Assembly (NCBI GenBank): GCA_035444785.1
Contig: DAOMPL010000005.1
Span: forward strand, 34,289-98,288
Direction of reading: 5' to 3'
DNA from: Edaphocola sp.
Lineage (GTDB): Bacteria; Bacteroidota; Bacteroidia; Chitinophagales; Chitinophagaceae
DNA: 64,000 nt
The number at the start of each line of letters is the position of its first letter. Positions within the stretch are counted from its first letter, which is position 1. A program made the position numbers and the translations under genes. Below the pieces are notes generated by a model, which was not told the DNA's origin, ran no database searches, and saw only the letters and a list, made by a program, of their open reading frames with translations. Positions 1,863-51,035 of this stretch are shown here, piece by piece.

Positions 1863-4073
1863 ATGAATTCACTGTTTTACGTAGTGCCCGCTTTAGCTAT
1901 TGTAGGGCTATTGTACACCATGATGCGCAGCTCATGGGTTTCTAAACAAAATGCCGGTAACGACCGCATGAAGGAAATTTCAAATTACATAGCAGAAGGT
2001 GCTATGGCATTTTTGAAAGCAGAATATAAAGTATTAACTTACTTTATCATTGTAGCTGCCTTATTATTAGCAGTAATGGGAGCCAGTAACGAAAACTCTC
2101 ACTGGACTATCGCCATTGCCTTCATCCTAGGTGGTGTATTTTCTGCATTAGCAGGAATGATAGGTATGCGTATTGCCACTAAAGCCAATGTGCGTACAGC
2201 AGAGGCTGCCAAAACCAGCCTTTCAAAAGCATTAAAAATATCCTTTACCGGCGGAGCCGTAATGGGTTTAGGCGTAGCCGGTTTAGCCGTTTTAGGTTTG
2301 GGTGGATTATTTATTATTCTTATTTCAGTATTTGCACCTGATGTAACAGCAGACAACGCTTTAGTAGGTAAAGCAATAGAAATATTAACCGGATTTAGTT
2401 TGGGTGCTGAAAGCATTGCCCTCTTTGCACGTGTTGGCGGTGGCATTTATACAAAAGCTGCAGACGTTGGTGCTGACTTAGTGGGTAAAGTAGAAGCAGG
2501 AATCCCGGAAGACGATCCTCGTAACCCTGCTACCATTGCGGATAACGTAGGTGACAATGTGGGTGACGTTGCAGGAATGGGTGCCGACCTTTTTGGCTCT
2601 TATGTGGCTACTGTTTTGGCAACTATGGTTTTAGGCCATGAGGTAAAAGGATTAGATGGTGCTGCTCTTTCAGATGGCTTTGACGGTTTTTCTCCTATTT
2701 TGCTCCCTATGTTAATTGCAGGGATAGGAATCATCCTGTCTATTGTAGGAACATGGTTTGTAAAAGTATCTGAAAATGTAAAAATCGATACCAAACCCGT
2801 TCAAAATGCCTTAAACATGGGTAACTGGGGTGCTATGGTATTGACGGCAATAGTTTCTTTTGGTTTAGTAAAATATTTATTACCGGAAACAATGGTGTTA
2901 AGAGGTCATGAGTTTACACAAATGGGAGTTTTTGGTGCTATTATGGTAGGTCTATTGGTAGGAGCTCTGATGACCATCATAACTGAACACTATACCGCAA
3001 TGGGTAAACGTCCGGTGATGAGCATCATCAAACAATCTTCAACTGGTCATGCCACCAATATTATCGGCGGTTTGGCTGTAGGCATGGAAAGTACCTTTTT
3101 ACCCATCTTAGTTTTAGCTGCCGGAATTTTTGGTTCTTATTTATTTGCCGGTCTTTATGGTGTGGCTATTGCAGCAGCAGGGATGATGGCAACTACAGCC
3201 ATGCAATTGGCAATCGATGCTTTTGGCCCTATTTCTGATAATGCCGGAGGAATTGCCGAGATGAGTGAATTGCCAAAAGATGTAAGAGAAAAAACAGATG
3301 TATTAGATGCTGTAGGTAACACCACAGCTGCGACCGGAAAAGGATTTGCAATAGCATCTGCTGCTTTAACCGCTTTGGCTTTATTTGCAGCTTTCGTTGG
3401 AGTTTCTGGAATTACTGGTATCGATATTTACAAAGCTGATGTTTTGGCCGGTTTATTTGTAGGTGGCATGATTCCATTCATCTTCTCTTCATTAGCCATC
3501 CGTGCAGTGGGTGAAGCTGCTATGGCAATGGTAGAAGAAGTTCGTCGCCAGTTCAGAGAAATTCCGGGAATCATGGAAGGTAAGGCCAAACCTGAATATG
3601 ACAAATGTGTTGCCATTTCTACTCAGGCTTCTTTACGTAAAATGGTTTTACCCGGAGCTATAGCTTTGGTATTCCCTACCCTTATTGGCTTCATTTTCGG
3701 ACCTGAAGTTTTAGGTGGATTTTTGGCCGGAGCTACTGTTAGTGGTGTTTTGATGGGTATCTTCCAAAACAATGCCGGAGGTGCTTGGGATAATGCTAAA
3801 AAATCTTTTGAGCAAGGTGTAGAAATAAATGGAACTATCCATTACAAAGGTTCAGACCCTCACAAAGCCTCTGTAACTGGTGATACTGTTGGTGATCCAT
3901 TTAAAGACACATCTGGCCCGTCCATGAATATCTTAATTAAATTGATGAGTATTGTTGCTTTGATTATTGCTCCTTCAATTGCTTCATTGCATGGGACAAA
4001 ATCAAATACTGCAAAAAACACTACCCCAACAGAGGTTATAAATAACCAAGTGGGAAACCCTACAAACAACTAA
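1863..4073 (+). CDS. hppA: Membrane-bound proton/sodium-translocating pyrophosphatase
   Basis: 736-aa polytopic protein with the hallmark motifs [29 protein letters not shown] and [15 protein letters not shown]. Confidence 0.95.
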
Positions 4074-27764: not shown

Positions 27765-28445
27765 TTTATTATCTGTTTATATTTGTTTAAATTTGAATAT
27801 TCTTTTACTTTTTCCTTTTGGTATCCACTCCTGTATCATATATTGGTGGTGTTATGGATTTTTAGCACAAATGTACATTCGAAGAACAAATATTAAACCT
27901 TAAATCTTTCACCATTTAGAAGAACTCCACCCTACTGAAAACCAAACCGAAGCATAAGGAACCCCTTCCATAAGTGTTCTACACAATTCTTTATTAAATA
28001 ATTTTCAAATATAGCCTTTCTATCTTTAGAGTCAAAAAAAAATTAAAGACATGAAAGGTAATTCAATTTTACTAAAAACACACTATTAACTTGGCCAAAA
28101 GACTTTGCCCAAAAATTCTCAAAAATCTCAAAACCTCTTCTTAAAGGAAAGCTGAAAACCCTTACTTCAATTCGCTTCAAACTATTATGAAAAGTTTTTG
28201 AAAAGTAGAACGTATAGCAAAAAGCCACGAGGCCTCACTGGTTGCGGAAAGGAGCGGAAATATTCATTTATCAAGGTATTATTCTATTCACAATTAGGAG
28301 ATTGTTGAAGTGCTAAAAGCAAGCTTTTGGGGATAAAGTAAAACCAAAAGATAAAGCATAGTATCATTAAGAAAAAAACTAAGACGCTATAAACAAATAC
28401 TTAAAAAATAAATAAAAAAATTGTTCACTATTAAAATCTTTATCG

Positions 28446-28461
28446 TAATATTGCAATATTA
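28446..28461. promoter_or_regulatory. Perfect 16-nt palindrome TAATATTGCAATATTA, candidate ArsR operator overlapping a near-consensus -7 box
   Basis: Ends 14 nt upstream of the arsR ATG. TAATATTG differs from TAnnTTTG at one position. Confidence 0.4.
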
Positions 28462-28474
28462 AATAAATGAAAAA

Positions 28475-28801
28475 ATGGGTGCAACTAAAACTGAACATTT
28501 TACAGACCAACAAAATCAGATAGCAACGATCGCAAAAGCATTGGGACATCCTGCAAGAATTGCCATCATTGAGCATTTGTTAAAAGTGAATGCTTGTATT
28601 TGTGGCGATATTGTAAATGAATTGCCATTGGCACAACCAACCGTTTCACAACATTTAAAGGAATTAAAAAACGCCGGATTGATAAAAGGAAGCATTGAAG
28701 GAAACGCTATCTGCTACTGTATTGATGAAAACACATTTGAAATTTTGAAAAACAATTTTTCAAAAATCATTGCAACAGTAACGAAACAAAATTGTTGTTA
28801 A
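28475..28801 (+). CDS. arsR: ArsR/SmtB family metalloregulatory repressor
   Basis: 108 aa. LGHPARIAIIEHL, the CxC site in ACICGDIV, the wHTH LAQPTVSQHLKELKNAGLI, and a C-terminal ...KQNCC. Confidence 0.85.
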   Translation: MGATKTEHFTDQQNQIATIAKALGHPARIAIIEHLLKVNACICGDIVNELPLAQPTVSQHLKELKNAGLIKGSIEGNAICYCIDENTFEILKNNFSKIIATVTKQNCC

Positions 28802-28823
28802 TAAACTTTAATTAATAAAAATA

Positions 28824-29663
28824 ATGAACACAGAACAAGAAATCAAAGAGATGGTAAAGCAAAAATATAGCGAAATTGCTTTACAAGACAAAGAAACCAA
28901 CGCTTCATCCTGTTGTGGAGCCGGTGGTTGCAGTACCGAAGTGTATAACATCATGAGTGAAGCATACAACGACCTTGAAGGCTATAATCCGGATGCCGAT
29001 TTAGGTTTGGGTTGCGGTTTGCCCACTCAGTTTGCCAAAATCAAAAAAGGAGATACCGTTATTGATTTGGGTAGTGGTGCCGGTAATGATTGCTTTGTAG
29101 CCAGAGCAGAAACAGGCGAAACCGGGAAAGTAATCGGTATTGATTTTACAGAACCAATGATCAATAAAGCACGAAACAATGCTGAAAAATTAGGCTTCAA
29201 CAATGTGGAGTTTAGACAAGGTGATATTGAAAAAATGCCTGTAACTGCTAATGTTGCTGATGTGATAGTGAGTAATTGTGTTTTAAATCTTGTGCCCAAT
29301 AAACAAGCTGTTTTTGCAGAAATTTATAGAGTTTTAAAACCTGGTGGACATTTCAGCATTTCTGATATTGTACTAACAGGAGCGTTGCCAGAAAAAATAA
29401 AATCTGCAGCTGAAATGTATGCCGGTTGCGTAGCCAGTGCCATTGATAAAGACGAATATTTGAGTTATATCAGCAAAGCGGGTTTTGCTAATATGCAAAT
29501 TCAAAAAGACAAAGCTATTATTGTACCTGACGATATTCTTAAAAATTATTTGAACGATGAAGAAATAACTCAATACAAAGCGAATGAAACGGTTATTAGA
29601 AGCATAACCGTTTATGCAGAAAAACCGGCGGAATGTTGTTCCCAAAATTCGGGATGTTGTTAA
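28824..29663 (+). CDS. arsM: Arsenite S-adenosylmethionine methyltransferase
   Basis: 279 aa. N-terminal SSCCGAGGCS, SAM motif VIDLGSGAGNDCF, SNCVLNLVP and MYAGCVASAI (the conserved ArsM cysteines), and a C-terminal AECCSQNSGCC. Confidence 0.85.
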   Translation: MNTEQEIKEMVKQKYSEIALQDKETNASSCCGAGGCSTEVYNIMSEAYNDLEGYNPDADLGLGCGLPTQFAKIKKGDTVIDLGSGAGNDCFVARAETGETGKVIGIDFTEPMINKARNNAEKLGFNNVEFRQGDIEKMPVTANVADVIVSNCVLNLVPNKQAVFAEIYRVLKPGGHFSISDIVLTGALPEKIKSAAEMYAGCVASAIDKDEYLSYISKAGFANMQIQKDKAIIVPDDILKNYLNDEEITQYKANETVIRSITVYAEKPAECCSQNSGCC

Positions 29664-29673
29664 TGCTTGAACT

Positions 29674-30279
29674 ATGAATAAAATAAGTATAGACAAGTTT
29701 GGAACAATAGGGCTTTTCTTAACGGCAATATTTTCACCTTGTTGTTTTCCCCTATTTGCTTTCGTTGCATCTGCGTTGGGATTGGGAAGTTTTGAACTTT
29801 TCGGAGGATGGACAATGTGGGTTTTTCAAGCAATGGTTTTGGTAAGTATTACCGGGCTAATCATCTCTTACTTAAAACATCGTTGTTTGTATCCACTTTT
29901 AGTGGCCCTTCTAAGCGGTCTTTTGATTTTTTATGGTTATTATTTTAACGATACTGACTATTGGATATACTTTCTTTATGCTGGAATGTTCGGTCTTTTG
30001 GTAGCTACTTTTTGGAATTACAAACAAAACAAAAAGCACGGTTCTTGTAAATCTTGCACCACATACAATGGGAAAACGGTAGAACTTACCTCAACAATTA
30101 CCTGCCCATATTGTGGACACAAGAAGACCGAGACTATGCCTACTAATGCTTGTACGTACTTTTATTACTGTGAAAATTGTAAAACACAAATTAAACCATT
30201 ACAAGGAGACTGTTGTGTGTATTGTAGCTATGGAACCGTAAAATGTCCTCCGATTCAAGCTGATAAAAACTGTTGTTAA
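29674..30279 (+). CDS. MerC-like membrane protein fused to a C-terminal GDCCVxC zinc-ribbon-like domain
   Basis: 201 aa. Four predicted TM helices, with SPCCFPLFAFVASALGLG in TM1 (MerC-like). The soluble tail has CKSC...CPYCG...YYCENC...GDCCVYCSYGTVKCPP and ends ...DKNCC. Confidence 0.65.
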   Translation: MNKISIDKFGTIGLFLTAIFSPCCFPLFAFVASALGLGSFELFGGWTMWVFQAMVLVSITGLIISYLKHRCLYPLLVALLSGLLIFYGYYFNDTDYWIYFLYAGMFGLLVATFWNYKQNKKHGSCKSCTTYNGKTVELTSTITCPYCGHKKTETMPTNACTYFYYCENCKTQIKPLQGDCCVYCSYGTVKCPPIQADKNCC

Positions 30280-30302
30280 TATGGAAGACATTATTACACA
30301 AA

Positions 30303-30539
30303 ATGATAAAGAAAATTATTGTGATTTGTAGCAATAACTGTTGCAGAAATCAAATAGCCGAAGGTTATTTACGATATTTCTCAGAAAACAAAGCAGCCGT
30401 TTACAGTGCTGGGGTTGAAACACACGGAGTAACCGCAAAAACTAGCATGACTATGTAAGAAGAAATTAACAAACAGTTTTAACAAGTAATACAACCAATC
30501 AAAGACTATTGCAAACAGTTTGTAGCGAAAAATTTGTAA
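30303..30539 (+). pseudogene. arsC: Relic of LMW-PTP-type arsenate reductase ArsC (internal deletion plus in-frame stops)
   Basis: MIKKIIVICSNNCCRNQIAEGYLRYF...VYSAGVETHGV keeps the CX5R loop but stops after 51 codons. The same frame continues *EEINKQF*QVIQPIKDYCKQFVAKNL*, resembling an ArsC C-terminus. That is 79 codons in total against about 135 expected. Confidence 0.7.
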
Positions 30540-30586
30540 ACAGAACCTTAGCAGTCAAGCAACGAATGATATTAAAACAAAACAAA

Positions 30587-31039
30587 ATGACCAATAGCAT
30601 AACAATTAGAGCCTATAAAACAGATGACAAAATTGCTGTATTAAATTTAATTAGATTAAATACCCCAAAATATTTTGCACCAGAAGAGGAAGAAGACTTA
30701 AAAAAATATTTAGAAAGTAAAAGAGAACTTTATTATGTATTAGAATGTGACGAAAAAATAGTTGGTTGCGGCGGCATTAATTTTTCTGACGATAAAACAA
30801 TAGCCAAAATTAGTTGGGATATATTTCATCCTGACTACCAAGGTCAATCTTTGGGAACAAATCTACTGAAACACAGATTAGAAATAATTAAATCAAAAGA
30901 CAACATCAAAAAAATCACTGTTAGAACTTCACAAGTTGCCTTCCTATTCTACGAAAAGAATGGTTTTGAATTATTTGAAATTAAAAAAAATTATTGGGCA
31001 GAAGGATTTGACCTTTACAATATGGAATTCAAACAATGA
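30587..31039 (+). CDS. GNAT family N-acetyltransferase
   Basis: Start at MTNSITIRAYK (ATG 30587). YQGQSLGTNLLKHRLEIIK acetyl-CoA motif and ...FYEKNGFE. Confidence 0.75.
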   Translation: MTNSITIRAYKTDDKIAVLNLIRLNTPKYFAPEEEEDLKKYLESKRELYYVLECDEKIVGCGGINFSDDKTIAKISWDIFHPDYQGQSLGTNLLKHRLEIIKSKDNIKKITVRTSQVAFLFYEKNGFELFEIKKNYWAEGFDLYNMEFKQ

Positions 31040-50570: not shown

Positions 50571-51035
50571 TTAATATTTTGATATTAAGTTTTCTAAAAT
50601 CGATTTACAACCCGCCTCAATTTCTTTAAAAACAGGCAAATAACCTTCATCTCCTCCAAACCAAGGATCGAGTACGTCTTTTTGAGTACCCGAATATAAA
50701 TCTTCCAAGAAAAAACTTACTTTTTCCTTAGCTGCATTATATGGAGCTAGTCGAATCACATCCCTATAAACATCTGCTGCCATGACATAAATTTTATCGT
50801 AATCTTCAAAATCTTCAGAGGCAAACCTTGTCGCTCTTTGACTGCTAATATCGTAACCATGCTGTTTGCATACCTTTTGAGAACTCGGATGTGGTGACTC
50901 CCCAGTATGATAACCATTGATACCGGATGAGGCAACTTCCCAATCTAATCCTTTTTCTTTTAGCATTGCCTTCATTATTCCTTCAGCCATCGGAGACCGA
51001 CAAATATTGCCTAAACAGACCATTAATAGTTTCAT
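50571..51035 (-). CDS. Low molecular weight protein-tyrosine phosphatase
   Basis: 154 aa. LMVCLGNICRSPMAEG CX5R(S) loop and a downstream DP motif (VLDPWFG). Confidence 0.85.
   Translation of the reverse strand: MKLLMVCLGNICRSPMAEGIMKAMLKEKGLDWEVASSGINGYHTGESPHPSSQKVCKQHGYDISSQRATRFASEDFEDYDKIYVMAADVYRDVIRLAPYNAAKEKVSFFLEDLYSGTQKDVLDPWFGGDEGYLPVFKEIEAGCKSILENLISKY

Follow-up and report, generated by a model that had tools for sequence, protein, structure and literature searches.

An ArArsR-type arsR-arsM module of Edaphocola sp. carrying a MerC::GDCCVxC fusion protein as a candidate handler of trivalent arsenicals

The 64,000-nucleotide stretch of DNA analysed here, referred to as the window throughout, originates from Edaphocola sp. 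(Bacteroidota; assembly GCA_035444785.1, 3.32 Mb in 109 contigs) and corresponds to positions 34289-98288 of contig DAOMPL010000005.1 (C5:34289-98288). It carries a cluster of five open reading frames (ORFs; Table 1) which, as an earlier note on this DNA had described, point in one direction and are separated by 10-47 nt; ORF listing, translation and family scans confirm that all five are present, with gaps of 22, 10, 23 and 47 nt from arsR to the gene for a GNAT acetyltransferase. Between the predicted arsenic methyltransferase gene arsM and a relic of the arsenate reductase gene arsC lies a gene encoding a MerC-like membrane domain fused to a cysteine-rich GDCCVxC domain (merC::GDCCVxC, hereafter ‘the fusion’). 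Our comparison with other genomes suggests, as the on balance probable reading, that arsR, arsM and the fusion gene constitute an accessory methylation module controlled by a regulator of the ArArsR type, in which the fusion, a membrane protein, probably acts on trivalent arsenicals as a thiol relay or chaperone.

Table 1. Features of the cluster, with positions given in the numbering of the window.
Feature	Position	Strand	Description
ArArsR-type operator (predicted)	28442..28461	+	ATCGTAATATTGCAATATTA; perfect 16-nt palindrome at 28446-28461
arsR	28475..28801	+	108 aa; NF033788, PF01022
arsM	28824..29663	+	279 aa; NF008823
merC::GDCCVxC	29674..30279	+	201 aa; PF03203 + NF041374
arsC pseudogene, thioredoxin-coupled, low-molecular-weight protein tyrosine phosphatase type	30303..30540	+	~175 nt internal deletion, in-frame stops
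GNAT acetyltransferase	30587..31039	+	PF00583
C-terminal Cys-Cys codons	28796-28801 (arsR), 29658-29663 (arsM), 30274-30279 (fusion)	+	Sequence

The window ArsR matches NF033788 with 70.7 bits (cut-off 55) and PF01022 with 42.9 bits, which assigns it to the ArsR/SmtB winged-helix fold, and it is 93.5% identical to a second copy located on contig C86 of the same assembly and 92% identical to its counterpart on a metagenome contig (L100). Its six cysteines (41, 43, 80, 82, 107 and 108) occupy the same positions as those of ArArsR from Arsenicibacter rosenii SM-1, in which arsenite (As(III)) is bound by C41, C80 and C82 and methylarsenite (MAs(III)) by C41 and C82, with C43, C107 and C108 being dispensable (PMC11868830). 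The predicted operator, ATCGTAATATTGCAATATTA, ends 14 nt short of the arsR start, and 16 of its bases (TTTATCGTAATATTGC) are common to the DNase I footprint of ArArsR, which is TTTTATCGTAATATTGCGATCACAATC (PMC11868830). The same 20-mer stands 5' of arsR in six loci (the window, C86, L100, L154, L150 and L151), among which the surrounding DNA diverges or is unrelated while the operator itself is unchanged; allowing for at most two mismatches, the operator pattern was found in 140 of 401 Bacteroidia genomes, compared with about ten matches for a reversed control pattern. Since both the six cysteines and the operator agree with the footprinted system, the cluster is predicted to be under ArArsR-type regulation, and its ArsR is classified as a putative As(III)/MAs(III)-responsive repressor of this type. 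The alternative offered in the earlier note, namely that the cluster handles a substrate other than As(III), is hence unlikely, given C41, C80 and C82 of ArsR and an operator that agrees with the footprinted ArArsR site.

For the product of arsM, the match to NF008823 (368.4 bits; cut-off 263) is accompanied by a match to the SAM-binding fold of PF13847 (154.6 bits; SAM, S-adenosylmethionine) and by alignment to the solved ArsM structures 5evj and 4fr0. C64, C152 and C202 are the cysteines of the motifs GCG, SNCV and GC(V/L)A, and align with those of 5evj; an N-terminal CC/C cluster (C30/C31/C36) is likewise present. The protein is thus a predicted As(III) SAM methyltransferase, and the view that the cluster is directed at arsenic and based on methylation, already taken from the letters alone in the earlier note, gains support from pump-less arsR-arsM(-arsC) operons with the same type of regulator, which detoxify by methylation.

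The third gene product combines a MerC domain (PF03203, residues 7-117; 67.5 bits compared with a gathering score of 27.6) with a GDCCVxC domain (NF041374, residues 140-196; 96.4 bits, cut-off 40), and stays far below the cut-offs of the equivalog-level MerC models NF033784 (32.2 bits vs 140) and NF010318 (30.7 bits vs 170). It comprises a four-helix MerC-like membrane domain, with the motif SPCCFP in the first transmembrane helix (TM1), and a Cys-rich tail (residues ~125-201) with the motif GDCCVYC and a terminal Cys-Cys. In an alignment of 37 family sequences, (i) C23 and C24 of SPCCFP within TM1, (ii) C144/C147 and C166/C169, representing two zinc-ribbon knuckles, and (iii) C160, C180/C181/C184 of the GDCCVxC motif and C191 are all invariant; the terminal C200/C201 are nearly so, and C71 in the second cytoplasmic loop is mostly conserved. 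Lys and Arg are concentrated at the N-terminus, in the loop from helix 2 to helix 3 and following helix 4, from which we infer that both termini and the tail reside in the cytoplasm. An AlphaFold2 model based on the same alignment (pLDDT 61.5, pTM 0.44, tail below 50) exhibits four or five helices (residues 5-19, 25-34, 39-69, 73-90 and 97-122), with TM1 kinked at the CC pair.

Three layouts were found in which the fusion is encoded among arsenic genes. The first, (a), is arsR-arsM-fusion, present in the window, on L100 and in two Saprospiraceae metagenome-assembled genomes (MAGs; L153 and L154): nucleotide identity is 86% over window positions 28402-30287, the proteins are 91-92% identical, and the flanks differ and hold genes of mobile or defence type (Fic, DUF1016, SSB). 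Layout (b) is arsR-fusion-metallophosphoesterase-acr3 behind an identical operator (L150-L152), and layout (c) is arsR-arsM-acr3-metallophosphoesterase-...-fusion-small methyltransferase (L078 and L079), with the operator region lying off the contig. In a maximum-likelihood tree, the fusions from ars contexts form one clade of six rows (support 92/86), and label clustering as tight as in this clade was obtained in one of 500 shuffles. Comparison of window and L100 yields ratios of nonsynonymous to synonymous substitution rates (dN/dS) of 0.039 (arsM) and 0.09 (fusion); arsR has a dN of 0.055, with saturation at its synonymous sites. Taken together, the 86% identity between loci with unlike flanks and the low dN/dS values show that arsR-arsM-fusion is a conserved and horizontally shared unit, its genes travelling together, and the substitution pattern likewise shows merC::GDCCVxC to be under purifying selection as the third gene of the operon. 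Judging from gene context, one clade of the fusion family is thus placed, in each of three operon layouts, under a putative sensor of As(III)/MAs(III). The homology between window and L100 stops at position 30287, that is, 8 nt past the fusion stop codon and before the arsC relic, and both this relic and the GNAT gene lie outside the predicted three-gene module.

The arsC relic scores 42.6 bits with TIGR02691 (cut-off 174.3), with a match limited to model positions 2-44. When aligned by blastn with the arsC gene of C86, its first ~160 nt (78% identity) and its last 80 nt (71% identity) are matched with nothing between; the deleted part amounts to about 175 nt (59 codons) and comprises the codons for the equivalents of both distal redox cysteines, C81 and C88. 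The window arsC is, on this alignment, a deletion pseudogene and not a full-length thioredoxin (Trx)-coupled ArsC of the pI258 type. A second gene of the low-molecular-weight protein tyrosine phosphatase (LMW-PTP) family, found in the window at 50571-51035 on the minus strand (PF01451, 116.6 bits), was considered as a spare ArsC and rejected, being nearer to Wzb-type tyrosine phosphatases than to ArsC.

Contig C86 (6143 bp) encodes ArsR, ArsM, an OsmC-like protein, Acr3 and ArsC and, on the other strand, a P-type ATPase. Its acr3 is above the cut-off of TIGR00832 (440 bits) and adjoins an arsC that is intact and of Trx type (138 aa). Model searches of the assembly returned neither ArsB nor ArsP, no ArsH above cut-off, and for ArsA only P-loop fragments. 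The absence of an efflux pump and the presence of a relic as sole reductase, as stated in the earlier note, therefore hold for the window, where the cluster contains neither Acr3 nor ArsB and is not a canonical ars efflux operon, and do not hold for the assembly with its acr3 and intact arsC on C86. The earlier note had itself proposed to search the rest of the genome for acr3, arsB and an intact arsC, and had reasoned that a pump and a reductase encoded elsewhere, if they account for all resistance, would leave the window cluster an accessory methylation module; acr3 and arsC were found, arsB was not, and we likewise regard the cluster as such a module. With a complete arsR-arsM-osmC-like-acr3-arsC operon on C86, the gene content of the assembly shows that the window cluster would not substitute for extrusion, and the extrusion-replacing logic suggested earlier is not supported.

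Window positions 28397-29663 (promoter, arsR and arsM) are 82% identical to C86 by blastn. The homology ends at the arsM stop codon and resumes 11 nt before the arsC start, so that the fusion sits exactly where C86 has osmC-like and acr3, and the loss of arsC in the window fits redundancy with the intact copy. Over its whole length, C86 is 96.4% identical to the L208 locus and 99.6% identical to the L190 locus, which belong to genomes of two other families; such near-identical copies suggest that C86 is a mobile element. Exact words at its two ends recur in contig C107, which looks to be the same ATPase region (92% identity) lacking the 3.6-kb ars operon, and the pair C86/C107 points to a recently spread mobile element combined with an assembly bubble. 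A congener (G002) has an operon of the same type as C86.

How ordinary a pump-less operon is in this regulatory class was assessed by annotating the genes downstream of 40 operator sites from different genomes (L185-L224). Most frequent is arsR-DUF6428-arsC, which occurs both with and without acr3. Of the sampled operons, eleven contain arsM: six of these are devoid of Acr3 (arsR-arsM-arsC in L186, L196, L207 and L221, with an added MIP channel gene in L204, and just arsR-arsM in L192), Acr3 is encoded by four, and one ends at the contig end; overall, about 22 of the 38 informative operons encode no Acr3. Since, moreover, the pump-less arsR-arsM-arsC operon ArarsRMC has been characterised experimentally and confers tolerance alone (PMC11868830), the pump-less layout is ordinary, and the rare feature of the window cluster is the MerC fusion and not the missing pump. 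In sister operons the slot following arsM or arsC is taken by Acr3, by MIP channels (5 of 40 operons) or, in one case, by a MerT-like protein. The MIP genes belong to Acr3-less operons (L187, L201, L204, L214 and L223; PF00230, 159 bits for L204). The MerT-like protein, encoded after arsR-arsM-arsC at L186:2423-2953 (oriented with the operator on the plus strand), is a Cys-rich membrane protein of 176 residues whose first helix contains a CC and whose tail has CC motifs; the match to MerT is weak (22.7 bits, below cut-off), and it may represent a second, independent Mer-like protein in an arsM operon.

Proteins encoded in ArArsR-type operons frequently exhibit Cys-Cys within their last four residues: 30 of 35 ArsR, 11 of 11 ArsM and 20 of 21 DUF6428 proteins do so, and none of the ArsC (0/30), Acr3 (0/17) and MIP (0/5) proteins, compared with a background of 3 among the 2422 ORFs of this genome that are 150 aa or longer. 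The C-terminal Cys-Cys is hence a mark of the soluble, predicted arsenic-binding proteins of these operons.

A word-indexed search with the fusion yielded 1138 clusters at 90% identity, nearly all of them ~202 aa in length and sharing 70-80% identity with the query; annotated relatives are named ‘MerC domain-containing protein’ and belong to Bacteroidota. A full HMMER scan with the GDCCVxC domain alone yielded 1176 representatives (50% identity, E <= 1e-10), most of which are mini-proteins of 75-130 aa. Survey of the neighbourhoods of fusion genes at 55 genome and 50 metagenome loci revealed mainly heavy-metal genes, that is, genes for Zn/Cd-type P1B ATPases, Czc-type RND systems, CDF and HMA proteins and multicopper oxidases. 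When 68 distinct full-length fusions are considered, 38 are encoded beside heavy-metal genes, 26 have no reference genes nearby and 4 are encoded with ars genes; none of eight congeners has the fusion. No MerA- or Lpd-like gene was found within 5-7 kb in ~120 loci, in an indirect test with the assembly's own Lpd as the probe, and MerA above cut-off is absent from the assembly, where the best match (295 bits vs 454) is typical of lipoamide dehydrogenase.

Several further arrangements were encountered in this survey. In L051-L055 (e.g., L051:5203-6008) a stand-alone gene for a GDCCVxC protein of 68 residues overlaps the stop codon of a MerTP gene (NF033556, 304 bits), constituting a mer-like uptake pair which, with no MerA nearby, is without reductase. 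At L059:2091-3086 and L060:5991-6902, the GDCCVxC domain is fused to a domain of ~250 residues with an N-terminal signal- or lipoprotein-like sequence (VPLVCGAAPxIGCGS), and the same domain is encoded alone just upstream of MerC::GDCCVxC at L041:6206-6973 and L101:1247-2014; should it be exported, a GDCCVxC domain would come to lie beyond the cytoplasm. In three unrelated contexts (L019, L043 and L077-L079; e.g., L077:4230-4883), the fusion is adjoined by a small SAM-dependent methyltransferase (204-217 aa) without assignment to a specific family. The metagenome contig L101 (5.4 kb) carries two MerC::GDCCVxC copies, at 2027-2635 and 3302-3910, with a glyoxalase-like gene between them and an ArsR/SmtB regulator gene before them, and in L102 the fusion is found with a MerR-family regulator on a mobile element.

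How might the fusion act within an accessory methylation module? A tentative answer, which we hold as possible with some reservation, is a Mer-style thiol relay ending in a membrane-anchored chaperone or sink. The vicinal cysteines of TM1 would capture trivalent arsenicals at the inner membrane or inside it, and ligand exchange would pass them to the cytoplasmic GDCCVxC domain and the terminal Cys-Cys; the GDCCVxC domain would then function as a membrane-anchored metallochaperone or sink, from which the arsenical might be handed over, in the window to ArsM and in relatives to Acr3 or metal pumps. A relay or chaperone is favoured over a pure importer by the sister fusions in operons that encode Acr3 (layouts (b) and (c)), where a pure importer would give rise to a futile cycle. 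The encoded neighbours of the fusion (P1B ATPases, CDF, Acr3 and ArsM) all act on cytosolic ions; together with the coexistence of fusion and Acr3, this makes the relay compatible with all contexts. The membrane conduits sharing one slot and the C-terminal Cys-Cys agree with such a relay, without constituting proof. It is more doubtful whether the fusion cooperates with Cys-Cys ‘handles’ on ArsR, ArsM and DUF6428, such that Bacteroidota would pass trivalent arsenicals from protein to protein by ligand exchange, as the mer system does for Hg(II).

A number of observations weigh against assigning the fusion to arsenic and the cluster to an accessory role. Most of the fusion family is found in Zn/Cd/Cu contexts, and merC::GDCCVxC occurs in none of the 40 sampled ArArsR-operator operons, which makes an arsenic role of the fusion a putative one. 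Sensing by ArArsR does not depend on C107 and C108 (PMC11868830), which gives the terminal CC theme a putative role at most. The structural model of the fusion is of low confidence, and literature searches found no paper with functional data on GDCCVxC proteins or on this MerC subfamily; searches for ‘MerC domain-containing’ proteins, or for MerC together with arsM and acr3, likewise yielded nothing on the fusion protein. Finally, C86 spans only 6.1 kb, is near-identical to loci in other families and forms a bubble with C107, so that its stable presence in this organism depends on the assembly.

The distribution of the family might instead indicate that the fusion is a hitch-hiking Zn/Cd/Cu/Hg gene with no role in arsenic handling, which was shuffled into the operon by mobile elements and is merely co-expressed. 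In line with this, 38 of 68 fusions are located beside a P1B ATPase, Czc, CDF, multicopper oxidase or HMA gene and 4 of 68 beside ars genes, the GDCCVxC domain partners with MerTP, the L102 copy accompanies a MerR-family regulator on a mobile element, and the count among the sampled operator-controlled operons is 0 of 40. We nevertheless consider hitch-hiking unlikely: the fusion is present in three ars arrangements, of which two follow one and the same ArArsR operator and one is truncated on its upstream side; fusions from ars contexts group together in the tree; the module has been kept across distant lineages under strong purifying selection; and a Zn/Cd protein would gain little from being controlled by a sensor of As(III)/MAs(III).

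Rather improbable, in our assessment, is the self-sufficient system which the earlier note had envisaged, where the fusion imports As(III), its tail captures the ion and ArsM methylates or volatilises it, thereby replacing extrusion. MerC, including that of Tn21, is described as an uptake transporter (PMC6416403), the fusion starts 10 nt after arsM, the pump-less ArarsRMC confers tolerance alone (PMC11868830), and in the Saprospiraceae MAGs no pump adjoins the three-gene module. Against it stand the acr3 gene and the intact arsC of the assembly, and a dedicated importer would create a futile cycle with the Acr3 of sister operons and with the exporters beside which most of the family is encoded. 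Such an importer would moreover be unneeded, as As(III) normally enters cells via aquaglyceroporins.

The reverse proposal, that the fusion provides an exit route for As(III), MAs(III) as well as dimethylarsenite (DMAs(III)), functionally replacing Acr3, would account for the way in which, compared with C86, it cleanly replaces osmC-acr3 from the arsM stop to the arsC start, for Acr3 or MIP in the same slot of sister operons, and for an assembly lacking ArsP, and ArsH above cut-off, for MAs(III). It is nonetheless improbable, since the characterised MerC and MerT proteins move metal inward, no energy-coupling module is present, and two other layouts encode the fusion together with Acr3. That the whole cluster is a decaying remnant without current function, with arsC loss as the first step, is very improbable: the arsC relic has diverged as well (65% amino acid identity to C86, vs 90-94% for ArsM and ArsR), but arsR, arsM and the fusion are intact, dN/dS with L100 is 0.04-0.09 and the operator is perfectly conserved.

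Membership of the GNAT gene, which the earlier note had counted as part of the cluster, is not borne out. The ATG at 30587 is its likely start, since a start at the TTG (30509) would overlap with the tail of arsC. The product scores 52 bits with PF00583, and its assignment as ArsN was rejected (NF040501, ArsN2: 18.9 bits vs a cut-off of 125), the orthologues in congeners being unlinked to ars genes. Such orthologues, all non-syntenic, were found in four congeners at 50-66% identity, namely 50-52% in three congeners lacking both arsM and the fusion and 66% in a fourth, whose arsM is located on other contigs, levels which parallel those of DprA. A GNAT gene does not follow the module in L100, L153 or L154, nor does it occur in the 40 operator-controlled operons. 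We therefore read it as a generic native neighbour, and not as a demonstrable member of the ars module, from the comparison of these loci; read-through transcription into it may occur, as no terminator is predicted between the genes.

As for the surroundings of the cluster, the right flank (radC-dprA onward) is syntenic with the nearest congener and synteny is lost directly after radC; the left flank is located elsewhere in that genome, and the search for island borders by synteny revealed no clean empty site. In the 680-nt gap upstream of arsR, Rfam and tRNA scans gave no match, and scans of the locus for sigma-70 promoters and terminators performed no better than on shuffled sequence. Two stretches in the ORF-free gap upstream of arsR possibly represent short intergenic repeats: positions 27856-27901 (46 nt) have copies of 83-87% identity on contigs C61 and C48 and a partial one in L101, and positions 28002-28069 (68 nt) match contig C34.

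Detoxification of arsenic without a pump is not new in itself, since the type is characterised and common, and this assembly has acr3. What is new is a conserved, uncharacterised, Mer-like and Cys-rich membrane protein under predicted arsenic control, which thereby becomes a candidate for a new ars gene. Once shown, the function of the fusion would provide a function for the GDCCVxC domain and could reveal a thiol-relay mode of arsenical handling; either outcome would be useful for the annotation of metal-resistance islands and for arsenic bioremediation and biosensing.

Among known systems, ArarsRMC of A. rosenii SM-1 resembles the window operon in the type of ArsR, the core operator, the gene order arsR-arsM-...-arsC and the lack of a pump. 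It detoxifies by methylation (PMC11868830), as the window operon is predicted to do; in the window, however, the fusion is inserted between arsM and arsC, and arsC is a deletion pseudogene. The arsR-arsM-osmC-like-acr3-arsC element of C86, also present in L208 and L190, shares arsR-arsM, the operator and the location of arsC at the 3' end, but has osmC-like and acr3 in place of the fusion, and its arsC is intact.

MerC of Tn21 is an uptake protein, and the characterised MerC and MerT proteins carry Hg(II) inward and deliver it by cysteine ligand exchange to a cytosolic acceptor. With these, and with MerTP, the fusion has in common four helices, a cysteine pair in TM1 and cytoplasmic cysteines; it differs in that its TM1 motif is a vicinal CC and in the additional GDCCVxC tail of ~75 residues, and, unlike in mer systems, no MerA, MerR or MerP partner of the fusion was found in the assembly or in ~120 related loci. 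The metallochaperone ArsD offers an analogy of function only, in that vicinal cysteine pairs could bind As(III) and pass it to an operon partner, whereas ArsD has no sequence relationship to the fusion, is soluble and serves ArsA, of which the assembly has no real copy. AqpS and other MIP channels, which occur in ars operons of the Sinorhizobium meliloti type, are likewise non-canonical membrane conduits in the pump slot of an ars operon, but their fold is unrelated to that of the fusion and they lack thiol chemistry.

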